DNA of 64,000 nucleotides from Synechococcus sp. (GCA_051439605.1 JBFRWN010000047.1:21169-85168); one strand, 5' to 3'; shown: positions 11,944 through 25,679, numbered from the stretch's first letter. Translations and numbers: made by a program. Notes: generated by a model from the letters alone, not told the origin.

Positions 11944-12468
11944 ATGAAATGGCAGGAGAATGCACTCGTGATTGTTGGTGTGCTGATGGTTACCGGTTGT
12001 ACAACTACGTCTACTTCAAATGTCCCGAATTCTGCCGAAATTACGCCTGTTGCAGTCACAGCAAGTGACTGGGAAAAGGCAGCAGATGGAGGGTGGGGGG
12101 ATTTTCCTCCGCAATTAACAATCGATGGAAGCTTGGACCCAAAGTCCTCTTGGCGGGCAGAAGGTGACGGAGCCTGGATTGAGTATGACTTAGGTGAAGC
12201 CGTTGTGCTGCAAGGTCTGCAAATTGCTTTCCTCAAGGGGGATGAACGTCAGTACACCTTCGATATCCAAATCAGTAACTCTGGGGCTCAAGGGGATTGG
12301 CAAACAGTTCTCGATCGCCAGCTAAGTACGGGAGCTTCTGCCCAGATGGAGACCTATTCGTTTAAGCCAGCGGAGGCGCAATATATTAGAGTTATCGGGC
12401 ATGGGAATAGCGACGAAGATTTCGGTAAATGGACCAACATTGTGGAAATCAGGTTTGAACCTAAATAA
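11944..12468 (+). CDS. Lipoprotein with discoidin/F5-8 type C (CBM32-like) domain
   Basis: Lipobox MVTGC; IDG..SSWRAEGDGAWIEYDLG, AFLKGDERQYTFDI, AQYIRVIGHGN..WTNIVE. Confidence 0.8.
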   Translation: MKWQENALVIVGVLMVTGCTTTSTSNVPNSAEITPVAVTASDWEKAADGGWGDFPPQLTIDGSLDPKSSWRAEGDGAWIEYDLGEAVVLQGLQIAFLKGDERQYTFDIQISNSGAQGDWQTVLDRQLSTGASAQMETYSFKPAEAQYIRVIGHGNSDEDFGKWTNIVEIRFEPK

Positions 12469-12729
12469 GGTCGTTCTACAACTGCAGACAAGAGTCAAAC
12501 TCATAGACTCAGCGTTTGTATCGCAAAACAATTTGATTTTTAGCCACAATCTCTATCTAAAATATTGTGCTTAATGTATGTATCAATCATCATAATTTTT
12601 GTCGTGAAGTTTAGCCCCTAAACAGAAACCTGGAACACTTCCACCATCTTGCATTAAAGCTAAGTTGGTCAGGCCTGAAATAATCAACTATGTCTCTTAC
12701 TGTAAGCCAAGTCAAAATCCTTGTTAACC

Positions 12730-13899
12730 ATGAAAAACGATAGTATTCCTACCATAGATTCAAATATAGTTACGATATCCATAAAGGAGCCTGAGACATC
12801 TTCACGGATATTAGATGATATGGATATGCTGAATAAGCACATCATCTTTGTTCTGGGAATGCATCGAAGTGGAACCAGCGCAATAACGCGTGGCCTTCAA
12901 GTTTTAGGTGTAGACTTAGGTAATACACTGATGCCAGCAGTCGAGAATAATAATGATAAGGGTTTCTGGGAAGATATAGAAGTCAACGAACTTAACATCT
13001 CTATACTGGAACACTTAGGATATAATTGGTACTCCTTAGAACCAACAATTCTAGATGAGAACACATTGGAACAAATTCCACAAAGCTTCAAGTCTCAAGC
13101 TGCGGAACTCCTTCGAAAAAAACTTTCTACCAACAATATATTAGGTATTAAGGATCCAAGATTTTCTCGACTGCTCCCTTTCTGGAAACATGTTGTTAAG
13201 TGTCTAAATATAAAATCAAGTTATCTTATTGCCCTCAGAAATCCAAAAAGTGTCGCATATTCTTTAGCTAGGCGAGACGGATTCGAGCTTACTAAGGGAT
13301 ATTATTTATGGCTAGAGTATATGCTTGACAGCTTAAGGTATACAAGAGAAGAAAATTTTGTTTTTGTTGACTATGATGCACTCATGATCGATCCGAGTGC
13401 TCAGCTTCAAAGAATCGCAGATAGTTTTCAACTTACATTTGAATCTTGCTCCGATCAATATATTCAATACAAAAGTGAATATCTAGACGAAAAACTTCGA
13501 CATACTAGTTATCAGCTTAAAGATATTTCTTCCGATCCATCAATCCCAGCAATTGTCAGAAATCTCTATAAACTACTAAAAGGATGTGCTTGTAAATTTG
13601 ATTATATCACCAATAAGGAACTAGATATTGCGATCAATAGATTCACTGAAAAACTTCAAGAAATTAGTCCTCTTTTGCAACTTCTCAGTATCTATGACAA
13701 CAAGATTCTAAAGTTAGAAGATGAAAGCAAACATCTCAATAGACTGGTCAGAAAGCTCGAGGATCAAGTTGATTGTCAAAGCAAACAACTGTCTATTATA
13801 ATAGACTCTAAAAGCTGGCAAATTACTGCGCCATTCAGATGGTTATCTCTTCAAGTAAGACAATTAATTTACTTGGTGCGAAATTCATTCGTATTCTAA
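12730..13899 (+). CDS. Sulfotransferase family protein with C-terminal coiled coil
   Basis: VLGMHRSGTS (PAPS-binding P-loop), NDKGFWE, KDPR, RNPKSVAYSL, SKSWQITAPFR. Confidence 0.85.
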   Translation: MKNDSIPTIDSNIVTISIKEPETSSRILDDMDMLNKHIIFVLGMHRSGTSAITRGLQVLGVDLGNTLMPAVENNNDKGFWEDIEVNELNISILEHLGYNWYSLEPTILDENTLEQIPQSFKSQAAELLRKKLSTNNILGIKDPRFSRLLPFWKHVVKCLNIKSSYLIALRNPKSVAYSLARRDGFELTKGYYLWLEYMLDSLRYTREENFVFVDYDALMIDPSAQLQRIADSFQLTFESCSDQYIQYKSEYLDEKLRHTSYQLKDISSDPSIPAIVRNLYKLLKGCACKFDYITNKELDIAINRFTEKLQEISPLLQLLSIYDNKILKLEDESKHLNRLVRKLEDQVDCQSKQLSIIIDSKSWQITAPFRWLSLQVRQLIYLVRNSFVF

Positions 13900-15749
13900 A
13901 AGAGAGTGGTGTCCTTCTGGAAATATTTCGGAAGGCGGCAGTAATTGTTTCATACGAAGGCATACCTGGCATTTACAAGCGACTTCGAATCAAACTTAGA
14001 GAGCGCTTTTTGGGAAAAAATTACGCTGAGTGGGTTCGCCGTTACGATACGCTTGACGATGCTGCACGTGTCCGCATTCGAGAAAGTATTGAGGCAATGG
14101 CTCACAAGCCTCTGATTTCTTTGGTCATGCCCGTATACGATCCACCAATACAGTTTCTGGAGGTTGCAATACGTTCGATCCAAAACCAAATCTACCCTCA
14201 CTGGGAGCTATTATGTATTGGCGAGGATATATCCAACAATGAGAAGGTTTTCAATCTAATTTCTACATATACCTCCGAAGATGTGCGTATCAAAACTTCC
14301 CATCGAGAATTCAACGATCGCATTTCGCGCGATAGCGATAGCGCGCTAGCACTAGTTTCAGGTGAATATATTGCGCTTTTAAATCATCATGACATGTTGT
14401 CTGAGCATGCTCTTTTCATGATTGCAGGCGCTATCAATCAAGATCCAGACGTAGGTTTGATATATTCAGATGAAGATAAAATCAATGTAGACGGTGAACG
14501 CTATAGTCCGTACTTTAAGTGTGAATTCAACTACGAGCTTTTTCTCGCTCAAAACTATATCTCTCACTTTACTGTATATCGCCATTCTTTGCTGAAAGAT
14601 ATTGGTGGTTTCAGCATTAGTGCTAACAGTTTTAATGACCACAATCTGGCTCTAAAAGCTATAGAGAAAATCAGGCCAAGCCAAATCGTACATTTGCCCT
14701 ATGTACTCTATCACTGGCAGGAATTTGAAGAAGGTACTGCACAGCTTGAGTCTTCAAATAATTCAGCCTCTAATGCCAGCCGAATATCAGTAGCAGAACA
14801 TCTTCAACGTTGTGGCATTGAAGCTGATGTATTGCCTGCACCTGAGGCTCCAAACTATAATCGTGTACGATTTTCACTTCCAAACACATTACCATTAGTC
14901 AGTATTATTATTCCTACACGAGATCGGGCCAACTTGCTTCGAATGTGTATTAATTCGATCCTAGAGAAATCTACATATCCAAATTTCGAAATCATTATTG
15001 TTGATAACGGTAGTTTAGAACAAGATACGATGAGACTGTTCGATGAGCTGCCAAAGAATCGAGTCAACATACTCCAAAACAGTTCTCCCTTCAATTTCTC
15101 CGAACTCAACAATTTTGGTGTCAATCAATCGAACGGTGAATTAATATGCTTGATGAATAATGATATTGAAGTTCTCACACCAAACTGGTTAGAAGAGATG
15201 GTTTCATTTGCAGTTAGGCCAGACGTTGGCTGCGTGGGTGCAAAACTCTGGTATCCAAATCAGCTTCTTCAGCATGGAGGTGTCATAACCGGACTTGGAG
15301 ATGTGGCGGGACACTTCCATAAAAAACTACCATACGGTTCTCCTGGATATTTCTCTAGAGCTATACTTCATCAGAGCTTAAGTGCTGTTACTGCTGCATG
15401 TTTACTGGTTCGCCGGGCTATTTTTGATGAAGTTTGTGGTCTTGAAGAATCGCTAGCTGTTGCTTTTAACGATGTTGATTTCTGTATGCGCGTACGTGAA
15501 GCAGGTTATCGGAATGTATGGACACCTTATGCAGAAATGATTCACCACGAATCGGTATCTAGAGGTTATGAAGATACGCCCGAAAAGCAGGCTCGATTAG
15601 CAAAAGAAGTTCAATTCATGAAGCAGCGTTGGAGTGATAAGTTAGTTCGAGATCCTTCATACAGCCCTAATCTTACTCTCGATACTGAAAATATTTCGTA
15701 TGCGTTTCCGCCACGCGTTGTCAAGGTCAAAGATTTTATTGGAAATTAA
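13839..15749 (+). CDS. Glycosyltransferase family 2 with two GT-A domains
   Basis: ISLVMPVY..YSDED, then VSIIIPTRD..IVDNGS, FNFSELNN, NNDIEV, AVTAACL, FNDVDFC, HHESVSRG. Confidence 0.9.
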   Translation: MVISSSKTINLLGAKFIRILKESGVLLEIFRKAAVIVSYEGIPGIYKRLRIKLRERFLGKNYAEWVRRYDTLDDAARVRIRESIEAMAHKPLISLVMPVYDPPIQFLEVAIRSIQNQIYPHWELLCIGEDISNNEKVFNLISTYTSEDVRIKTSHREFNDRISRDSDSALALVSGEYIALLNHHDMLSEHALFMIAGAINQDPDVGLIYSDEDKINVDGERYSPYFKCEFNYELFLAQNYISHFTVYRHSLLKDIGGFSISANSFNDHNLALKAIEKIRPSQIVHLPYVLYHWQEFEEGTAQLESSNNSASNASRISVAEHLQRCGIEADVLPAPEAPNYNRVRFSLPNTLPLVSIIIPTRDRANLLRMCINSILEKSTYPNFEIIIVDNGSLEQDTMRLFDELPKNRVNILQNSSPFNFSELNNFGVNQSNGELICLMNNDIEVLTPNWLEEMVSFAVRPDVGCVGAKLWYPNQLLQHGGVITGLGDVAGHFHKKLPYGSPGYFSRAILHQSLSAVTAACLLVRRAIFDEVCGLEESLAVAFNDVDFCMRVREAGYRNVWTPYAEMIHHESVSRGYEDTPEKQARLAKEVQFMKQRWSDKLVRDPSYSPNLTLDTENISYAFPPRVVKVKDFIGN

Positions 15750-15792
15750 ATACAATATTTCAACGTACTCGTCCCATGGTCGAGGTTTGGGG

Positions 15793-16770
15793 TCAACGAA
15801 TAGACATTCTAACTCTAGAAAGTACCCCAAATCCAATTCTAAATAAGAACCACTTATTCGGACAATCTAATGATTTAATTCCTGGACAATCAAATAGCCG
15901 AATTACTCTCTGAAAATTCTGCCAATCCCCCCTCCGCAGCTGTCTCCATGCTCCTGCCAGAATAAACTGATATAAAAACAAACTCTTACATCGTTTTAGC
16001 TCTTCCGAACTCAAAACTTCCATCTGGCTTACTTCTGAAAATAATTCCAATAACAAGGCAATCGTTTCTTCATTAAACACCTCCATCGTTAATGCCTCAG
16101 AATGCACTCTATACGACACCGTTATTTCCCTACAACAATAGACCCCACAATGTGCAAATAATCGTCTCCACATCTCCACATCGCAAGGCTCCCTCCACTC
16201 GGGCCGAAAGCCCCCCACCACTTTCAAAACTGACCGTTGAAAGACGATCGCAGGAAAACGAACAAACGAAGAATCTGAAAACAAACGAATTAAAGCTTCC
16301 TTCGAAGATAAATAACGATCGGTACTAAAAACCTGTCGCTTCATCACCTGTTCTTGCGCATCAACCACCAAAGCACCAAAAAGTAACACTGCATATTTGT
16401 CCTCTAACCGATCGAGCGTTACCAATAAACGGTCAATTCCCCCCGGCACGAAAAAATCATCGTCATGTAGAACCATTACATAGCGCCCTTGGGCCAAGGC
16501 GATCGCCCGATTCCAATTCTGAGCCATCCCCAAAGCAATCGGATGATGTTCGTAGCACCAACTCCAACCTTTGAGGATGTCCTCTGCAATCGCTTCACAC
16601 GTCCGATCGTCTGAATCATCTGCGATCGAAATTTCAACCCTTGACCGAGCAACCTGATTCCCCTCGACAATAGATTGCAGACCCCGCTGAAACCACAGGG
16701 GACGATTATAGGCCGGGATACAAATACTTAAAATCGGGTTTTTAATCATTACTCTTTGGTTCTGTTGCAT
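15793..16770 (-). CDS. Glycosyltransferase family 2
   Basis: LSICIPAYNRP, IADDSD, NWNRAI, VLHDDD. Start uncertain (16749 or 16770). Confidence 0.88.
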   Translation of the reverse strand: MQQNQRVMIKNPILSICIPAYNRPLWFQRGLQSIVEGNQVARSRVEISIADDSDDRTCEAIAEDILKGWSWCYEHHPIALGMAQNWNRAIALAQGRYVMVLHDDDFFVPGGIDRLLVTLDRLEDKYAVLLFGALVVDAQEQVMKRQVFSTDRYLSSKEALIRLFSDSSFVRFPAIVFQRSVLKVVGGFRPEWREPCDVEMWRRLFAHCGVYCCREITVSYRVHSEALTMEVFNEETIALLLELFSEVSQMEVLSSEELKRCKSLFLYQFILAGAWRQLRRGDWQNFQRVIRLFDCPGIKSLDCPNKWFLFRIGFGVLSRVRMSIR

Positions 16771-17533
16771 CTGCCAGGAAGCACAGGAGATCTCTAACAC
16801 TCTCTTACTCTTTTACACAGCAATCTCTATAGGGATATAACGTTTTTCAGCTCGGATCGCTGTAATGTGTCCCCTTCGACAGATGCGCCTGTTCAGCGAG
16901 GCCCAAGAAACAAGTCAACCAGGCTTAGGGGTTGGATATTGAGTGGCCCGAGATGAGGCGGTGCTTCGTGGGTCATCTTCCTTTAAGGGGATGACGGAGA
17001 AATAGAAAGCCAGCAGCCGATCGCGGGGGTTGTTGAGCGACTGTCTTTGCAAGAGCTTGCCATCCATCGCTAGGAGGCTTTTTATTTTAAGAAGTAACAA
17101 CAAAGATATCTGCAAGTTCTATCTACCTTCGTGCATCTATACGTCTCTACACATTTGTAGACAGAAAAAATGGACCCGTTGTCCGATAGGGGGGTATTGA
17201 CTGTCCGCCATGATGAATTTCTTGAGTGCCAGAACGGAATGAAAGGGACTTGGAGCGACGGTTTTATCGCTGATGGCCGATCCCGGTATATGCATCCCGA
17301 TTCGTAAGGCGTCATTGAGGTTCTCAGTACTTTTATAGATTTGTTTACTTAGAGTCACTTAATCCTGGGAGGACTCTTAGGATAGAACTCATTGAAGACA
17401 AATACTTATGCTCTGCTTGCACTTGCACTCGCCTACTGCACGAGTCGGGTTGTCATAATTGACTTCTGCTGAGCTGGTTGGGGGGAGACCAACCTAATTC
17501 GTGCGAATCTGCCCTAACTCTGTTGGTGCAAAC

Positions 17534-18205
17534 GTGACGATTGAAACCCTTGTACTAGAAGCCCATCCACTCGTACAGATGGGATTAGTTCATTTGATTG
17601 AAGGCCAACCCCAGTTTCATATTTGGGGGGTTGCCGAATCAGCGACTTCTGCTCTGGAGCTGTTACAAAATGGCTTGTTTGAAGATCGCTTGCCCGATCT
17701 GCTGCTCATGAGTCCGGCGATACCGGATATTAGTCGCAGCGTGAGTTTCGTGCGGCAACTGCAACAGTCGAATACCCGCGTGCGCATCTTGGCTTTACTG
17801 GAAATGGGGGAGTTGGCGAAATCTCATGCCAGCGTTTTAGTCAATAGCGGCGTGCAAGGATGCTGTCTCAAGTCAAAGCCAGTAGGGCACATTGTGCAGG
17901 CCTTAACTGCGATTGCCTCCGATGTTTGCTGGATGGATTCAGAATTGAACGGACTGCAGAAAAACCTGCGCAATCAGTATGTCGTTGCGGCTAAAGTTCC
18001 CTCTCGGCCAGAAATCTCGCTGTCTAACCGCGAGCGCCAGGTCCTACAGGAAATCACTTCTGGCAAAAGTAACCGAGAGATTGCTAAGACTCTGGAAGTA
18101 GCTGAGAGTACCATCAAGTCTCATATCGTGCGCATCTTACGCAAGATGAGGGTGCGCGATCGCACCCAGGCGGCGGTGGTAGCTATGCGCGAAGGGTTGG
18201 TCTAG
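17534..18205 (+). CDS. NarL/LuxR-family response regulator with atypical receiver
   Basis: C-terminal LSNRERQVLQEITSGKSNREIA..TIKSHI..DRTQAAVVA LuxR HTH; receiver-like N-terminus. Start GTG 17501 or 17534. Confidence 0.88.
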   Translation: MTIETLVLEAHPLVQMGLVHLIEGQPQFHIWGVAESATSALELLQNGLFEDRLPDLLLMSPAIPDISRSVSFVRQLQQSNTRVRILALLEMGELAKSHASVLVNSGVQGCCLKSKPVGHIVQALTAIASDVCWMDSELNGLQKNLRNQYVVAAKVPSRPEISLSNRERQVLQEITSGKSNREIAKTLEVAESTIKSHIVRILRKMRVRDRTQAAVVAMREGLV

Positions 18206-18224: not shown

Positions 18225-19361
18225 TTAAACTCTAGCCTCCAGTGGAATGTAGGTCAGATTGCGATCGCCGGTATAGACCTGGGTGGGTCGGAACAGGCGG
18301 TTGTCATCCAGTTGTTCTTTCCAGTGGGCTAACCAACCCGCCACTCGGGAAATCGCAAACACTGGAGTGAAGAAATCTTCAGGAATACCGAGCTTGGAGT
18401 AGACCAAGCCAGAATAGAAATCAACATTGGGGTAGATCCCCTTGGCCCCCAACAGCTCTTCACAAACAGACTCAACTTCTAGGGCAATGTCATAGATTTT
18501 GTCGTGACCGAGGCGATCGAACAGTTCCTCAGCTAACTTTTGCAGAATGGTTGCACGAGGATCTTTGACTTTGTACACTCGATGGCCCAAACCCATAATG
18601 CGCTCTTTACGGGCGAGGCAGTCTTCAATAAACGGGCGCACATTTTCTACACTGCCAATCTTCCGCAACGCTTTCATCACCCTCTCATTGGCGCCACCAT
18701 GTAAGCTTCCTGACAAGGTGCCAACAGCTGCAGTAATGGCCGTGTAGGGATCGGCTAGGGTGGAGGCAGTGACCAACGTGGAGAACGTCGAGGCATTGAC
18801 CGTATGTTCTGCATGCAGTATTAAGCAGATATCAAATATCCTTGCTTCCCATGGGTCAGGGACCCGACCGGTCATCATGTAGAGGAAGTTGCTGGCATGA
18901 TCGAGATCGTCCCGTGGGGCAATCGGATCGTTCCCTTGACGCATTTGGCGGAAAGCAGCCACAAAGGTTGGAAACTTAGCCAATAACCGGACAACTGTGC
19001 CAGTGACGTAATCTTCGTCAAAGCTGCTGATGGGATAGAAAAGACCCAAACCCGCAACGCAAGTTTGTAGGGCATCCATCGGGTGACCAGACTCGGGGAA
19101 GCATTTGATCATGTCCCGTATGCGGTATTTGACCCGCCGGTGAATGCGAGTTTCGAGATCGAATTCGTCCAACTCATCGCGAGTGGGCAGTTTTCCGAAA
19201 ATCAGCAGATAGGCAGTTTCGAGAAAGTTACTGTGCTCAGTGAGCTGGTCGATACTGATGCCGCGGTACTCTAAAATACCTTGTTGCCCATCAATGAAGC
19301 TGATGTTGGAGCTGGTGGCTGGAACACCTTCCAATCCGGGTTTATAAGTTCCTTCTGCCAT
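18225..19361 (-). CDS. gltA: Citrate synthase
   Basis: PGLEGV, LEYRGI, LHAEH, LHGGANE, MGLGHRVYKVKDPRA, YPNVDFYSG. Confidence 0.98.
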   Translation of the reverse strand: MAEGTYKPGLEGVPATSSNISFIDGQQGILEYRGISIDQLTEHSNFLETAYLLIFGKLPTRDELDEFDLETRIHRRVKYRIRDMIKCFPESGHPMDALQTCVAGLGLFYPISSFDEDYVTGTVVRLLAKFPTFVAAFRQMRQGNDPIAPRDDLDHASNFLYMMTGRVPDPWEARIFDICLILHAEHTVNASTFSTLVTASTLADPYTAITAAVGTLSGSLHGGANERVMKALRKIGSVENVRPFIEDCLARKERIMGLGHRVYKVKDPRATILQKLAEELFDRLGHDKIYDIALEVESVCEELLGAKGIYPNVDFYSGLVYSKLGIPEDFFTPVFAISRVAGWLAHWKEQLDDNRLFRPTQVYTGDRNLTYIPLEARV

Positions 19362-19761
19362 GATTGCTCCCAACTACCAACTGAACAAACTTCGGTACGG
19401 ACGCCACTCGCAAATGTGTGAAAAAGCGGTCCCTACATGACCAAACACCATCACCGGTCGATGGCGATGTGTAGGACGTAACAGGACTTGATTTTAAGCC
19501 TTATTGGTCAGACTCTTCCAGTGCTTGGATGCCTTGGAAATTCTGCCTGCATAGTTGGTGGCTTTCCAGTGGCTTAGCCAAGGCGTCCCTGCGCTCAAAT
19601 GACACCTGTCTTGTGCGGTGCATGCTGTCAATCTCGGTCAGTCTTGGGTCAGGATGAGTCGCAATCGATGGCGATACCGTCCCAAAACAACACTGCAGAA
19701 AATGACTGATGGGTTGTTAACCACAAGGGACTTGCCTAGAGGCAGATTGCCTTCGGGCAAT

Positions 19762-19793: not shown

Positions 19794-19884
19794 AAGATTT
19801 AGCTAAATAAAGCTCCACAGATGCGGGTCTGCCTGAACAGTAAGATGGTGGCCAGTAGGGTTGAGGACCGAGGAACCGCTGCTG

Positions 19885-20820
19885 ATGAAGCCCTTTTCAT
19901 TGACCAGAATCGAGCAACCGCAGTGGTTGGTCAAAGGCCTTGCGATCGCCTCAGCTGCGGTTGTCTTTCTAGTGGCATTGACCTTTCTCTTGATACTGAA
20001 ATTGAGCCCGTTGGCCTTGCGCGATCGCCCTGCTGTCGCCTCTGACATTATCCGTCTTGCCCCAAGGGATACAGTACTTGCTGCCACACTTGACGCTCCA
20101 TTACTGGACGTAGAGCGATTAAATCGATATCTCACTCCCTTTTCAGAGCGTGGCCCCTTGCATCGTCAGTGGCAGCAATGGATATCTGCAGAAGGAAAGG
20201 GGCCCCTATCGGAGTTCTTATCGGCTACTCAATTGCGGTTTGACCGCGACTTTCGTCCTTGGTTGGGGCGCGAAAATTTACTGGCAGTTACTGCCACGAA
20301 TGGGGAGCTGCCAGATTATTTTGTGGCGTTGTCCACTCAGGATCTTCAGCGCTCGAATTTTTTACTGAACGTGCTGTGGCAGCAGCAGTACCTCCAGCAG
20401 CAGGACCCTCAAGTGGAGGTTTACAAAGGGGTTCAACTGTTGTCAGTTCCGGTTGGCGATCGCGATTGGGCAGTCGGTGCTGTGGGTAACCGTTACGTTC
20501 TCTTGGCTACAGGATCGGATGTGGCTCGGGGAGCGATTGATAGTTGGCAGATGGAACGGCTTTCGCTGGCCAGCACGCCCATTTACCGAGATGCTGCTGC
20601 GGAGAGAAGCACTCGCCTGGGCCTTGTATACGTCAACTTGCCGGATGGACTTAGCAGGCCGCAAGTCCGGGGTGAAGACGCTTCAGCAGCTGAACACTTA
20701 GAGACTCTTTGGGATATCGACTGGAGTGTTTTGCAAACAGCCGACAACCAACCTACCTTGCTAAAAATAGGGGTTAGCGCTCGCCAATTGGACTTGATGC
20801 CCCTTCAGGCTCAGTCTTAG
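19885..20820 (+). CDS. DUF3352-like membrane-anchored protein
   Basis: N-terminal TM, FDRDFRPWLGRE and YKGVQL motifs recalled from cyanobacterial DUF3352 proteins. Confidence 0.65.
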   Translation: MKPFSLTRIEQPQWLVKGLAIASAAVVFLVALTFLLILKLSPLALRDRPAVASDIIRLAPRDTVLAATLDAPLLDVERLNRYLTPFSERGPLHRQWQQWISAEGKGPLSEFLSATQLRFDRDFRPWLGRENLLAVTATNGELPDYFVALSTQDLQRSNFLLNVLWQQQYLQQQDPQVEVYKGVQLLSVPVGDRDWAVGAVGNRYVLLATGSDVARGAIDSWQMERLSLASTPIYRDAAAERSTRLGLVYVNLPDGLSRPQVRGEDASAAEHLETLWDIDWSVLQTADNQPTLLKIGVSARQLDLMPLQAQS

Positions 20821-20892: not shown

Positions 20893-23800
20893 CTAGCTAG
20901 CGCAATCGAAAGCTGTGACTGGTGGGAACGAGTCAGCTGGATGTGAAATGCCCAGTTCGACAAACCCCTGCTGGGCAGCCTCTTGATGGGAGTTGGAGGG
21001 TTGCTGGGACGTCAAAGGGCTCAAGTGCCAATGGGCAAGGGCGACTTCGTAGGGCATCTGCAAGCGGTTCGCTGTACGCAGACATCGCCGCCAGAACTCT
21101 TTAGCTCGGTTGGGACGATGGGCAATGGCATTCCAACAGCCACGATGCAGCAGTGTACGGGGTTGACTAATGGGGAAGGCGGTGGCGTACCGAGCTTGCG
21201 CTAAGCAGGCGTTCAAAGCATCATCCCTCAGCTGAGGATCGGTTGGGGCCTGCGCCCATAGCGTCAAAAATACTGCTGTAATGCTGGCGTAGCTTTCCAC
21301 TAAATACAACACCACAGCCCCCAATCCATCCACAGAGCGTAATGCATCCAGAGCCAGTTGTCTGGCGGCTGCGATTTGCCCCTGACGGAGCCGGATTTGG
21401 GCCAACAGCGCTTGCAGGCGAAATTGCTCGCAGGCTAGGTCTCGATACTCGGTGTCCATCTCCATCGCCCGTTTTAGGAAAGGAACGGCGGAATGCCAAT
21501 TTCCCCGGATCAGATGAGTTTCAGCCTGCCCTAACAGACCCCATAACTGCATCTGTAAGTTGTCGCATTGCAGCCCCAGTTGATGGGTTCTTTGCCAATG
21601 GAGAATGGCTGTTGCGTAGTGTCCTTGCCAATGTTCAATCGCTGCCAGACTGGCTTGGGCCTCCCCCTCTCGATGGCGATCGCGGAGGTTGGCGAAGCTG
21701 TCACTGGCTTGTAAAGACAACTGCTTGGCGGTTCCCCAATTCCCAACAGAGCTGTAATAGGCCCCTAACACTAAATTCACCCAGCTGCCTGCAGTGGGGT
21801 CGGGGGTGGCGCTCAGTGTGTCGAGGGCCAAGCGAGCGTAACGGCGAGATAAGCTGTGGACGTTGTTGATGCCAGTCGCAAAACACATGTTGGCGTAGAT
21901 GCGAGCCAATTCGGGGGAAGGGCCTGCCAGCTCGGCTAAGTTGAGGCCGTGGAGAGTGGCGTAGGTGGCGAGCGATCGCTGGTTGCTGTAGTAATACACT
22001 TCTCCCAGATGGGAACAGGCAAGACTCATCTCTTTGAGACTTTGCACAGTGTGTCCTGACCTTAGGAAACGGAACCTTGACGTTCTGCGCTGCGGTTGCA
22101 GTCCGCTGCGGCGCAGGACTTGTATGAGGAGTTCCTGGAAAGATAGCAGAGCCACACTCCAAGGGGCTCGGGGAAAGTTCCGCCCCAGGATGGAGATACA
22201 GGTTTGCAGAGCGGTGCAACTGGCATTTAAATTTCCCAAGCCAACGTAGGCATCCCCCAGCTGACGGTGCCACCGAGCCCGGTGGAGAGAGATCGATCCG
22301 ATCGCGAGATCTGTCCCTGCATTCCCATCGCGAGAGCTAAGACTGCTCAGGGGGTGTTGATGCTCGATCGCGATCGCTTGCTCCAAAAACTCCACCGCTT
22401 CGGCATTGGCCCCGTTGCGTAGCGCTTGCTCCCCCGCTTGGCCTAAATATTGGATTGCTTTTGCCCAATTCTCGGCCCTTACCCAGTGGTAAGCCAAAAC
22501 GGAGGGGTCCCCCTCAGCCGCCCTAGAATTAGTTTCGAACCACACAGCTGTTGCTCGATGGAGGGCCCGCCGCTGCGAAAACACCATCAAGCTGTAGGCC
22601 ACCTCTTGGGTGATGACATGTCGAAATTGATAGCTTAAATCGGGTGCTGGTTGCACGAGGGTGGTGAGTTGCTGAGCAGAAAGGTCTTCTAAGCTTTGGC
22701 TCATGGAGCTATGGGTGAGCTGAACGGGATAGATATCCTGCAACAGGTCCACGAGAAAAACACGTCCTATGGCACTGGCGGTTTTAAGCACCAACTGTGG
22801 GGTAGGTTCTAGGAGATCGAGACGACTGACAATAGCTCCCCGAACGGTATTGGGGAGATCTAGTTGGGACCGCTTGTGGTGGTTTAAGGCCAAGTCGCAA
22901 ACAGGCCCGCGACGAACGAGCGCTCCCGTCACCTCCATTGACAGAGCCAGTTGCTCGCTGAATAACGGCTGCCCTTGGGATTTGTTGAAGATGGTGTGGA
23001 GCAGCCGATCGGAAATGGTGTCGCTTTTTAGGCAACTGCACAAAAGTTGCTGGGTCTCCTGTAAGGACAGAGTATCAAGTCTCAGATACAGGCTACTGGG
23101 AGCACTACACAGGGAACTGTAGCTTTTGGGGAGAGAGGCGATGGGACGAGTGGCGATCGCCAGAAGGAGGGAGGGTAACCGTTGCGTTATGGATGCTGCC
23201 AGCTGCCAAGAGGCTGAGTCCATCCAGTGGGCATCGTCCAACAAAATCGTGGTGAGCTTATTCGTCAGTCGATCGTTCAAAAGACCGATCAGTAATGCCC
23301 TTGTGTTGTCCGCCCGCACCTGCCCTTGCATAGTGCTGGTGACAGAATTGTCTGGTAAATCCAGTTCCAGAATGGGAGTCAATAGCGGTAGTAGTGGTTG
23401 CCAGTCTTCGCGTTGGCTGGTTTGTTGCAGTAAGTGTTGCTGTTTCTCCTGGGGCGATCGTCCCTCTAACTCCAACAGATGGCTGATGGGGGCTCTCCAG
23501 GCTCGATACGGCACTTGCCGTTCAATGCTGTCCCCGCCCCCTCTCAAAGTCTGAATGCCGCAGGATCTGGCCCGATCGTGCAGTTTTTGCAAGAGCTGCG
23601 ATTTACCAATGCCCGCTTCCCCCTCCAACAGGAGAACTCCCCCTTGTCTCTGACCGATCAGGGCTTGGACTGCTGCCTCAATTTGAGCCTGTTCGGTGAC
23701 CCTGCCCGCAATGGATAGATGGGTGGGGGGCCGATAGCTCGATTGGGTTTCTGTGCGATTGCTAGGGCTGTACACCGGTTGTGGTTCTTCCCAACCCTTG

Positions 23801-25215
23801 ATTAAGATCCGATCGTGCGTCTGGAACTGAAAGAGTGGGGCGGTGGCTTGGTAGGTGCGGCGATCGCACAGGATATAGTCGTTCGCACGATAGTGGATGG
23901 CTGCCTGCATCAGACGGGCGGCTAGGTTGATGGCCCCGCCAATGGTGGTGTATTCCTGCCGCTGGTGGTTGCCAACGGACCCGCAAAACGCTCGCCCCGT
24001 AGCCACACCAATTGCCCATTGTTGGCCCGCGCTCTGCAACAGTTGACGAATTCCCAGCGCTGTCTGCACCCCCCGCTCAGCATCGTTATCGTGGGCCATC
24101 AGGGGCAAACCAAACGCAATGAAGGCTGACGTTCCTTTGTCATCAGTGCTAAAGGCAAGAATCCCTTCGTAGCGTTTGGCCGTTCTTTGTAATCCCACTG
24201 CGATCTCCTGCAGGTGCGGCAAGAGTTGTTGCCTGCCCCAGTTGGGTAAGTGAACGAAAACGGCTGTCACTTGACGGAATTCTGCCAACCAGTTGCTTTG
24301 TCCTGCCTCTAATCGCGATAGCACGGTACTGTGCACGAACGATTTCAGGGCCGCTAACCCAGCAGAATTGTCTGCTGGGGGAAGTATCGTCTGTGTACTT
24401 GCGAAGTGGGTCGCACTGCTTTGAATTTCCGCAGGATTGCGGGGCCGATCGCTGCTGGTAGAGTTCGACGAACTGATGCTAGATCGTCCTTTTGGGTTGG
24501 CTTGGGGGAGTGTGCGTGAAGGATTTGAGGGCAAGGCCAGCAAAGACTGCAGCAGGAAATGGTTCTTCTGTAGCAGATGGCCGTGACTGTAGCGGCCGAT
24601 TATTGCATGTGCTTCGGCAGATAACACCACTTGGGTGGGGGCAGCTTGCTTAACCGTTTGTTGCAAGCGTTGAAGGGTAGTCCCTGCCATCACGCAGTGC
24701 CAGCGATCGCCAACGCCTCCAACCTGCATCCAGTTGACTTCGCCCACATCGATGCCAATGCGGAGGGAGATTTGCGGACTGTAGCCAAAGTCAGTCTGCT
24801 GAAGCTGGGTTGCTACGCGGGACTGAATGTCGAGAGCTACCGCTGCTGCACGATAGACGGAGGCGAGCGGTGTCGATGCGTTGCTCTCTTTGACAGCAGC
24901 TTGAACTGCAACATCTAATGGCCAGACCGCAACCAATGCGTCTCCCGCAAATTTCACCACGTCACCGCCGCGATCGATGACTGTAGCGATCGCCAGGTCG
25001 AACGTACTGTTGAGTAATTGAGTCAGGGTCTCAACCCCCTGCGGTCCTGTTTGGCTATAGTGCTCCGTTAAAGCGGTAAATCCTGAAATATCGGCTAGTA
25101 ACGTGACGCCATTGAAACATTGCTGAGATGCAACCAGCGGTTGTGGCTGTTGTGCGAGATGGCGCAGCAGCAGCTGAGGTACGTAGGTAGAGAGGGTGTG
25201 CGGTGCGATCGACAT
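20893..25215 (-). CDS. Class III nucleotide cyclase (two catalytic domains) fused to a STAND/AAA ATPase and TPR-like region; soluble adenylyl cyclase (ADCY10)-like
   Basis: LLADISGFT, VVKFAGDAL, DDKG, GVATGRAFCGSVG..EYTTIGGAINLAARLM; Walker A GEAGIGKS; Walker B LLDDAHWMD; GQPLF; FRH; helical C-terminus. Confidence 0.9.
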   Translation of the reverse strand: MSIAPHTLSTYVPQLLLRHLAQQPQPLVASQQCFNGVTLLADISGFTALTEHYSQTGPQGVETLTQLLNSTFDLAIATVIDRGGDVVKFAGDALVAVWPLDVAVQAAVKESNASTPLASVYRAAAVALDIQSRVATQLQQTDFGYSPQISLRIGIDVGEVNWMQVGGVGDRWHCVMAGTTLQRLQQTVKQAAPTQVVLSAEAHAIIGRYSHGHLLQKNHFLLQSLLALPSNPSRTLPQANPKGRSSISSSNSTSSDRPRNPAEIQSSATHFASTQTILPPADNSAGLAALKSFVHSTVLSRLEAGQSNWLAEFRQVTAVFVHLPNWGRQQLLPHLQEIAVGLQRTAKRYEGILAFSTDDKGTSAFIAFGLPLMAHDNDAERGVQTALGIRQLLQSAGQQWAIGVATGRAFCGSVGNHQRQEYTTIGGAINLAARLMQAAIHYRANDYILCDRRTYQATAPLFQFQTHDRILIKGWEEPQPVYSPSNRTETQSSYRPPTHLSIAGRVTEQAQIEAAVQALIGQRQGGVLLLEGEAGIGKSQLLQKLHDRARSCGIQTLRGGGDSIERQVPYRAWRAPISHLLELEGRSPQEKQQHLLQQTSQREDWQPLLPLLTPILELDLPDNSVTSTMQGQVRADNTRALLIGLLNDRLTNKLTTILLDDAHWMDSASWQLAASITQRLPSLLLAIATRPIASLPKSYSSLCSAPSSLYLRLDTLSLQETQQLLCSCLKSDTISDRLLHTIFNKSQGQPLFSEQLALSMEVTGALVRRGPVCDLALNHHKRSQLDLPNTVRGAIVSRLDLLEPTPQLVLKTASAIGRVFLVDLLQDIYPVQLTHSSMSQSLEDLSAQQLTTLVQPAPDLSYQFRHVITQEVAYSLMVFSQRRALHRATAVWFETNSRAAEGDPSVLAYHWVRAENWAKAIQYLGQAGEQALRNGANAEAVEFLEQAIAIEHQHPLSSLSSRDGNAGTDLAIGSISLHRARWHRQLGDAYVGLGNLNASCTALQTCISILGRNFPRAPWSVALLSFQELLIQVLRRSGLQPQRRTSRFRFLRSGHTVQSLKEMSLACSHLGEVYYYSNQRSLATYATLHGLNLAELAGPSPELARIYANMCFATGINNVHSLSRRYARLALDTLSATPDPTAGSWVNLVLGAYYSSVGNWGTAKQLSLQASDSFANLRDRHREGEAQASLAAIEHWQGHYATAILHWQRTHQLGLQCDNLQMQLWGLLGQAETHLIRGNWHSAVPFLKRAMEMDTEYRDLACEQFRLQALLAQIRLRQGQIAAARQLALDALRSVDGLGAVVLYLVESYASITAVFLTLWAQAPTDPQLRDDALNACLAQARYATAFPISQPRTLLHRGCWNAIAHRPNRAKEFWRRCLRTANRLQMPYEVALAHWHLSPLTSQQPSNSHQEAAQQGFVELGISHPADSFPPVTAFDCAS

Positions 25216-25406
25216 TGCGGTGGAACAGCCTGGATTCCAATCCCTGTATGACACTGTATTCCACCCCGGTTAAGAATTGAGAACGGCCATTTGAGAGATC
25301 TGCGATTGGTAACGAGTCGCAGTACAGTGACGAATAACGTTTCCAGCTAATGCTCAGGGAGGAGTACGAACTCGCATTCCGAATACGATTCATCAGGAGT
25401 ATAGAG

Positions 25407-25679
25407 ATGAGCGAAAGGCTTCTTTGCCCGATCTGTAACGTCACAATTGATGGCGATCTCGTGCAGTTTTCCCACGGAGGAGCAGGGACAAAGAGTCGTC
25501 TTTGGGCTAGAGTTTGCCGTCACGCCACTAAAGAGGGATGCATAAATGATTTTGGAAAGGGCGACGCGCAGTTTAGTGAGAATGACGATTTTGGCAAGGT
25601 AGAAACCCATGAGGAAGAGGTGCTGGAGATGATGAAGCAGTGGTTCAAATTTGAGGATGAAGACCCCATCCAGTCTTAA
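25407..25679 (+). CDS. Small Cys-containing hypothetical protein
   Basis: CAGGAG RBS before ATG 25407; CPIC...RLWARVC...GCIN (4 Cys). Confidence 0.75.
   Translation: MSERLLCPICNVTIDGDLVQFSHGGAGTKSRLWARVCRHATKEGCINDFGKGDAQFSENDDFGKVETHEEEVLEMMKQWFKFEDEDPIQS

Follow-up and report, generated by a model that had tools for sequence, protein, structure and literature searches.

What does a cyclase of the type known as soluble adenylyl cyclase (sAC) make when the lysine that specifies adenine is missing? The question is raised by one gene in a 64,000-nucleotide stretch of DNA from Synechococcus sp. (GCA_051439605.1 JBFRWN010000047.1:21169-85168), here called the window. The gene occupies positions 20893-25215 on the minus strand and is an intact open reading frame (ORF) of 1440 amino acids (P0001), with its ATG at 25215 and its stop at 20893. 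An in-frame GTG lies 39 nt upstream, and the ATG is taken as the start because orthologs begin at the matching Met. The initial annotation read the product as a ligand-gated generator of a second messenger, possibly bicarbonate-sensing or immune, that may make a nucleotide other than cyclic AMP (cAMP). The sequence points to a plainer answer, with a probability of about 0.5. P0001 would be a STAND-gated adenylyl cyclase (AC) with weakened or relaxed adenine selection. The gene has the following features.

20893-25215, minus strand: sAC-like gene encoding P0001, arranged as C1-linker-C2-STAND-TPR (ORF, Pfam, PDB and homolog matches)
24541-25215, minus strand: C1 cyclase domain, residues 1-225, with motifs LLADISG (39-45) and KFAGD (88-92); key residues are the metal-binding Asp42 and Asp92, Lys88 (sAC K95), Arg152 (sAC K144) and Gln185 (sAC R176 site) (human sAC alignment, family alignment, AlphaFold2 (AF2) model)
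24361-24540, minus strand: C1-C2 linker, residues 226-285, low-confidence and variable (predicted local distance difference test score (pLDDT) about 50; 23-39% ortholog identity)
23755-24360, minus strand: C2 cyclase domain, residues 286-487 (sAC alignment, AF2 model, structural match)
24133-24171, minus strand: C2 beta-2 strand and loop YEGILAFSTDDKG, residues 349-361, one residue shorter than in the family
24154-24156, minus strand: Ala354, at the sAC Lys334 site (alignment, contigs without an indel)
23908-23955, minus strand: EYTTIGGAINLAARLM, residues 421-436, with Thr423 (class IIIb), Asn430 and Arg434 all retained
23797-23799, minus strand: Lys473 of the conserved KG motif, Lys in 98% of the family and invariant in the clade described below; presumably a phosphate-binding residue
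22366-23718, minus strand: STAND NTPase and putative winged-helix region, about residues 500-950 (AAA_16, family-consensus motifs)
23599-23622, minus strand: Walker A, residues 532-539
23224-23244, minus strand: Walker B, LLDDAHW, residues 658-664
22966-22974, minus strand: G-Q-P motif, residues 748-750
20896-22365, minus strand: TPR-like helical region, putative sensor, residues 951-1440 (TPR matches below cut-off)

The adenine-lysine strand of C2 is altered. Human sAC FQGQINKVFMFDKG and the bacterial consensus YEGSINKLSVDDKG align to YEGILAFSTDDKG of P0001, which has no Lys at the Lys334 position. The initial annotation was right on this point, and the alignment places Ala354 there. It had missed that the strand has also lost one residue relative to sAC and the family consensus, so that a single Ala354 stands for Asn-Lys. 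Around the Lys, 263 Lys-bearing relatives show the pattern polar, hydrophobic (100%), Asn/Asp, Lys, hydrophobic (100%), polar, hydrophobic (97%). In the simplest register, Asn-Lys would have become one small residue, Ala354, and Leu353 and Phe355 would stay in the core. The deletion would then remove a beta-bulge.

Several other explanations for the missing Lys were discarded. Residues 349-359 contain no other Lys that could fill the Lys334 position. Lys360 of the DKG motif is no substitute because it is also present (98%) in relatives that retain the adenine Lys, a comparison made by sequence and not by coordinates. Arg352 is not a conserved compensating residue, occurring in only three of the eight clade members. 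An assembly error at the loop was rejected as well. In runs X2 and X8, which belong to two studies, the contigs that cover the site have no indel and differ by a single synonymous change, and seven other protein clusters share the deletion; the short strand is therefore neither chance nor an assembly error. Where a class IIIb cyclase has its adenine-specifying Lys, P0001 has Ala354 and a one-residue deletion. Because that Lys is missing, P0001 is filed as a variant and not as a canonical class IIIb AC.

The remainder of the protein follows the sAC layout, as first proposed, and the motifs quoted earlier (C1, C2, Walker A and B, GxP) are all present. Pfam assigns P0001 Guanylate_cyc in two stretches (4e-13) and AAA_16 (2.5e-16); matches to TPR_12, TPR_MalT, TPR_8 and TPR_2 all fall under their Pfam cut-offs. 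The top PDB sequence match is human ADCY10 (E 6.6e-33, about 26% identity). An AF2 model of residues 1-500, built from an alignment of 52 sequences, has a mean pLDDT of 86.8 over C1-C2. Strand 352-358 is unbroken in the model, and block 351-360 scores 92. Compared with human sAC (4CLK), the model gives Z 42.0 and a root mean square deviation (rmsd) of 2.6 over 423 aligned residues. According to this model, P0001 has the tandem C1-C2 sAC fold. One composite active site is intact and is made up of Asp42, Asp92 and Arg152 from C1 and Thr423, Asn430, Arg434 and Lys473 from C2.

In the C-terminal part, the Walker A, Walker B, TRP motif, G-x-P, RLD and FRH regions agree with the family consensus. 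Its neighbors in the ESM Atlas are AAA_16/TPR clusters at 0.96-0.98, and a sequence comparison of the STAND-TPR part with the PDB gave no match at E 0.1. The TOMM kinase/cyclase fusion family (TIGR03903) was rejected, with 125 bits against a curated cut-off of 705.75. The STAND motifs are intact. P0001 is probably a ligand-gated cyclic-nucleotide generator, and this half of the initial annotation stands. The gating itself, with nucleotide exchange and oligomerization, we infer only from the STAND class.

Homologs are abundant. Among 8000 scored candidates, 1264 match P0001; many proteins of Chloroflexota and other bacteria do so at 33-38% identity over nearly the full length. The cyclase region has 1758 representatives at E 1e-30 or better. 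A family sample of 388 proteins was drawn from the top matches to the query and is not a census. Nine were dropped (eight cluster duplicates and one 5195-aa multi-copy protein), and 357 of the remaining 379 were parsed. At the Lys334 site, 266 of the 357 have Lys, 44 Arg, 27 Gln and 9 another residue, and in 11 the strand is one residue shorter. Loss of the Lys is thus common in the family, since 91 of 357 differ at the site. The 5195-aa protein, P0122, contains repeated sAC-like cyclase pairs with Lys in each.

Eight of the 11 short-strand proteins form one clade (P0001-P0004, P0121, P0165, P0269 and P0288) with FastTree support of 1.0 and a stem of 0.61; the FastTree tree does not resolve its sister group. 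Members are 48-88% identical to one another. The replacement of Asn-Lys by Ala, Val or Thr is inherited in the clade. In the family alignment, the clade is marked by the deletion and the small residue, with Thr kept: the Thr423 site is retained in all seven members that cover it. Asp42, Asp92, Arg152, Thr423, Asn430, Arg434 and Lys473 are each invariant in all covering members (6-7 each). Clade-specific changes on the pocket side are Phe355, Ala364, Thr424 and Gly427. A scan of genome contigs for further members returned just two known orthologs, and a metagenome scan, of which the best 80 of 368 matches were kept, returned none.

Two related variants were seen. The sub-branch of P0165, P0269 and P0288 has Arg352, which could reach the vacated pocket. 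Outside the clade, the short strand occurs in P0283, P0291 and P0292, the latter two with Arg at the Lys site and Met for Thr.

The course of events that we consider most economical would be as follows. P0001 belongs to the widespread bacterial sAC-like cyclase-cyclase-STAND-TPR proteins, and its gene would have been gained, or moved to its present place, in an ancestor of some members of one cyanobacterial genus. The deletion would take out the bulge residue, leaving the strand in register with a small side chain at the former place of Lys334. Thr423 and the adjacent backbone carbonyl, which we assume to contact the 6-amino group of adenine, would still favor that group. ATP would be converted to cAMP at reduced efficiency, with looser discrimination against GTP and ITP. 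The STAND-TPR part may keep cyclase activity low until some ligand binds the TPR region. The protein would then be a conditional, low-output source of cAMP beside the canonical CHASE2 cyclase of the genome, and neither a bicarbonate sensor at the sAC site nor an anti-phage system.

Published mutants bear on this proposal. In human sAC, Lys334 reaches the base via water (PMC12867704, Table 1). Lys-to-Ala mutants of Rv1625c and Slr1991 retain their response to CO2 and therefore kept measurable AC activity (PMC2613629). The K101E mutant of Ma1120 falls in Vmax from 166 to 9, about 6% of wild type, and is still mainly an AC (PMC4215837). By analogy with these enzymes, weaker and less selective synthesis of cAMP is the most economical prediction for P0001. 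A literature search, with most subscription papers outside its reach, returned no description of this clade or deletion.

A number of points weigh against this prediction. Mutation of the Lys in Ma1120 lowers activity more than tenfold (PMC4215837), and the Lys normally matters, because it is kept in 266 of 357 scored relatives. The C-terminal region of full-length human sAC lowers activity only about 3-fold, and no nucleotide regulator was identified for it (PMC12802110); on both grounds, STAND gating is unproven even in human sAC. The removal of a bulge rests on the hydrophobic pattern and not on coordinates. Of the C2 columns conserved in the family, the clade keeps 75-80%, where the mean is 93%, and only 2 of 229 other proteins retain fewer than P0001. 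Retention is also lower in C1 (78-86% against 92%) and in STAND (76-79% against 91%). This pattern is not specific to C2, and fits a long stem or some relaxation. Synonymous divergence (dS) from the genome of the window (G000) is saturated in most comparisons.

The same observations can be read as the decay of an enzyme. P0001 would then bind ATP and metal with negligible turnover and serve as a STAND scaffold that senses nucleotides. The clade has lost a substrate residue that is usually conserved, and conserved-column retention is below average in C1, C2 and STAND. A class III AC-like ATP-binding protein of P. aeruginosa (PDB 6YII), which we take to be non-catalytic and for which no supporting paper was found, matches the AF2 model structurally (Z 25.7, rmsd 3.7, 364 aligned). 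The Dictyostelium soluble guanylyl cyclase (sGC) protein has a role independent of catalysis (PMC8684759). The transition-state residues Asn430 and Arg434 and both metal-binding Asp residues are nevertheless invariant across members that share as little as 48% identity, and P0001 lacks any further domain for output. In favor of the weakened AC, 7 of 7 catalytic residues are invariant among the four members of nearly full length, compared with 58 of 162 other polar sites; as kin are not independent, the naive p of 8e-4 is too strong. We rate a near-dead enzyme as unlikely.

Selection also speaks against decay. Ratios of nonsynonymous to synonymous substitution rates (dN/dS, Nei-Gojobori) between the G001 and G003 orthologs are 0.12 for C1, 0.14 for C2, 0.17 for STAND and 0.14 for TPR, so that C2 is not above the other domains. 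For comparison, gltA gives 0.02 and DUF3352 0.17. Purifying selection acts on the sAC-like gene. At least 31 strain differences lie within the ORF. Of these 31, 16 are synonymous, 15 are non-synonymous and no catalytic residue is affected.

The alternative put forward in the initial annotation is a change of product. The lineage may have re-engineered the sAC-type pocket by deleting the Lys-bearing bulge, so that the remodelled pocket prefers another nucleotide and yields, under STAND/TPR gating, cGMP, cIMP or a cyclic pyrimidine in place of cAMP. Such a solution to selectivity would be undescribed for class III cyclases and would insulate the signal from the cAMP-CRP circuit, a prospect as tentative as the product change itself. 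The change is fixed on a long stem (0.61) together with the other clade-specific pocket-side changes, and the catalytic residues are retained. An earlier change of product in the sAC lineage is seen in Dictyostelium sGC, a guanylyl cyclase that combines sAC topology with an AAA-ATPase (PMC8684759). The bacterial sAC-like family has many non-Lys variants, and the genome of the window already has a canonical AC and 14 cyclic nucleotide monophosphate (cNMP)-binding matches.

The residues in the pocket fit this alternative less well. Guanylyl cyclases have Glu at the site equivalent to Lys334 (PMC4215837). A guanylyl-cyclase pair, with Glu or Gln at the first position and Cys, Ser, Ala, Gly, His or Thr at the second, is not found in P0001, which has Ala and Thr. 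Pyrimidine selection in PycC uses bulky or charged residues (Y50/D94/R97, F100/R142/Q144 or F60/K104/F109; PMC11224242). The residue at the Lys334 site of P0001 is small, with no bulky residue of the PycC type there, and Ala, Val or Thr should open the pocket. No conserved new specificity residue is evident, because both the site (Ala/Val/Thr) and position 352 (Ile/Asn/Arg) vary in the clade. No dedicated receptor is linked to the cyclase gene. Because Thr is kept and nothing GC-like (guanylyl cyclase-like) or PycC-like replaces the Lys, a product other than cAMP is not favored, and we consider it a rather unlikely outcome. Within it, GTP or ITP would be the most plausible substrates, in themselves unlikely, and UTP or CTP would be highly improbable. 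Readings beyond a weakened AC, a changed product and a nearly inactive enzyme are quite improbable.

Better guanylyl cyclase candidates than P0001 are found elsewhere in the family. Of the 27 Gln variants, 16 pair the Gln with a change of Thr to Ala. P0019, P0064, P0080, P0104, P0138 and P0166 carry Gln in place of Lys334, Ala in place of Thr405 and, in C1, Glu in place of Lys95, and the Gln/Ala pair also occurs in P0013, P0072, P0256 and others. By their residues, these Gln/Ala groups are the stronger candidates.

Whichever product is made, P0001 could be a bicarbonate or CO2 sensor like mammalian sAC. The mammalian enzyme binds bicarbonate through Lys95 and Arg176 (PMC12867704). P0001 has the Lys95 equivalent (Lys88) and the class IIIb Thr, which the initial annotation took as hallmarks of bicarbonate stimulation; the Thr is merely a generic class IIIb mark. 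Arg176 is replaced by Gln185, and Arg is found at this site in none of the eight clade members. In the bacterial family, Arg is not among the five commonest residues there, which are mostly Gly, Ser or Cys. P0269 and P0288, two of the seven clade members that cover the C1 Lys88 site, have Ser in its place. Sea urchin (Lys/Asn) and salmon sAC, each missing one residue of the pair, are bicarbonate-insensitive and activated by pH (PMC12867704). CyaB1 no longer responded to CO2 once its substrate Lys was mutated (PMC2613629). P0001 is thus unlikely to sense bicarbonate at the sAC site, and a looser class IIIb response to CO2 is possible by analogy.

The neighborhood of the gene bears on its origin and on an immune role. 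On the downstream side are three genes.

19861-20820, plus strand: gene for a truncated DUF3352 protein (319 aa), lying tail to tail with the cyclase gene
18225-19373, minus strand: citrate synthase gene gltA, conserved downstream synteny
17501-18205, plus strand: LuxR-family regulator gene, conserved downstream synteny

In G000 and the related genomes G001 and G003, the cyclase gene lies tail to tail with DUF3352 (302-319 aa), followed by gltA and LuxR, and each genome has a different upstream side. G002, which is of the same genus and consists of one contig, has a 567-aa DUF3352 (L041:8354-10057, minus strand) in the same LuxR-gltA block, and the cyclase gene was not found in this genome. 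DUF3352 is short beside the cyclase and full-length without it; the cyclase is therefore the mark of an old event, insertion or rearrangement, that cut DUF3352 short. A search of G000 did not find the lost C-terminal half. The truncated N-terminal half is under purifying selection (dN/dS 0.17) and may be a functional stand-alone half.

Of 30 genomes of the order, 4 were found to have a full sAC-type C2. Besides G000, G001 and G003, the carrier is G004 (L023:5054-8806), which retains the Lys and has the gene in a different context. The closest relatives of P0001 are labelled cyanobacterial metagenome-assembled genomes. Runs that hold at least half of the stretch are marine sediment metagenomes (five rows from two studies, one possibly its source), and no RNA dataset is among the listed runs. 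A promoter and terminator scan gave 2 promoter-like sites against 3.5 expected. G000 has three other class III cyclases. One is a CHASE2-type enzyme (G000:C117:10770-15393) encoded immediately behind genes for a CRP-like protein and a membrane protein that binds cNMP; from its sequence, we take it to be the canonical AC. None of the 14 cNMP-binding matches in the genome is on C47, the contig that carries the cyclase gene.

The initial annotation also proposed an NLR-like protein with a possible immune role. With whichever product, P0001 would then be an anti-phage sensor whose signal is a cyclic nucleotide, as in Pycsar, Pucsar or Avs. The STAND-TPR architecture and the patchy presence (4 of 30 genomes) would suit it. 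An immune clade in which cyclases are joined to NACHT/AP-ATPase STANDs has been predicted in a preprint (10.64898/2026.08.12.744502), and the related locus L098 has a cNMP-binding patatin gene immediately downstream. The locus itself argues otherwise. No cNMP receptor or defense gene flanks the cyclase gene in G000, G001 or G003, and the flanks are housekeeping genes. The gene is fixed beside gltA in three species with saturated dS, and its TPR region is conserved and not fast-evolving. PADLOC matches of P0001 to PycC are weak and generic to cyclases (best E 3e-13), and the three neighbors tested gave none. Pfam scans of 22 other window proteins found no defense-family match. Across 32 related loci, 110 neighbors gave 10 PADLOC matches, most of them generic (ABC ATPase, cyclase, RelA, methyltransferase, oxidoreductase). 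Only two look like real defense genes: an AbiJ-type gene at L119 and a type I specificity gene at L135. An immune role is very doubtful.

The patatin gene at L098 (10205-11827, plus strand) lies downstream of a Lys-type sAC-like gene, and the two are a possible cyclase-effector pair. In one Lys-type subclade, ORFs of 255-280 aa with no Pfam match recur upstream (L074:1087-1893, L076:2518-3282, L091:5045-5830, L101:3753-4526, L105:4792-5592 and L115:3282-4118, plus strand), and a cytochrome P450 or methyltransferase gene is often downstream.

Within the window, an NblD-like protein gene (25350-25679, plus strand; 72.5 bits against a cut-off of 80) is divergent from the cyclase gene, and a second weak NblD-like copy is on contig C143 of G000. 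An operon with this upstream gene was rejected, the link not being conserved in G001 or G003. Positions 12001-16000, where a glycosyltransferase gene and a gene of the sulfotransferase family lie, have a low GC content (39-41%, compared with about 53%) and are a likely horizontal acquisition.

Should P0001 prove to be an active AC, nature would have supplied a test of how well a class III cyclase manages without the textbook adenine Lys. It could also serve as a bacterial full-length sAC model for regulation by the STAND/TPR tail, for which Lys-bearing relatives would serve equally. If it makes another nucleotide, it would show a new way for specificity to change and add a new signal in cyanobacteria. 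Of wider interest is the family, where about a quarter of sampled members vary at the Lys site, including the Gln/Ala candidate guanylyl cyclases.

The initial annotation saw in P0001 an undescribed system. Bacterial sAC with a P-loop NTPase is already known (PMC6660944), and the cyclase-cyclase-STAND-TPR architecture is both known and abundant, as the 1264 matches indicate. P0001 is an active-site variant of a single gene in a common family, with no linked system. The bacterial sAC-like proteins of the Chloroflexus type share its full architecture, its STAND motifs and 33-38% identity, and many are from Chloroflexota. They differ at the strand: 266 of 357 keep the Lys at full length, and the eight clusters of the P0001 clade do not. 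The sAC-like cyclases of Chloroflexus are activated by bicarbonate (PMC11006738).

Mammalian ADCY10 shares the tandem C1-C2 pseudo-heterodimer fold, the metal-binding Asp pair (D47 and D99, equivalent to Asp42 and Asp92), the class IIIb Thr (T405, equivalent to Thr423), the Asn and Arg, the K95 equivalent and a C-terminal P-loop/STAND region. In P0001, Lys334 is replaced by Ala with a one-residue deletion, Arg176 by Gln and K144 by Arg. The C2 beta-2/3 loop reads DDKG in P0001 and FDKG in ADCY10, and identity is about 26%.

Dictyostelium sGC shares the sAC topology and the AAA-ATPase and is a precedent for a changed product (PMC8684759). It makes cGMP, whereas P0001 keeps the AC-type Thr. PycC of Pycsar and PucC of Pucsar share a class III fold without the canonical adenine pair, and P0001 has weak PADLOC matches to this type. 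They are homodimeric, have specific pocket residues and are encoded with CNBD-TIR or transmembrane effectors. P0001 is tandem and STAND-fused, with no effector nearby. The 6YII protein of P. aeruginosa shares the tandem cyclase-like fold at about 15% identity, and P0001 differs from it in keeping every catalytic residue except the Lys.

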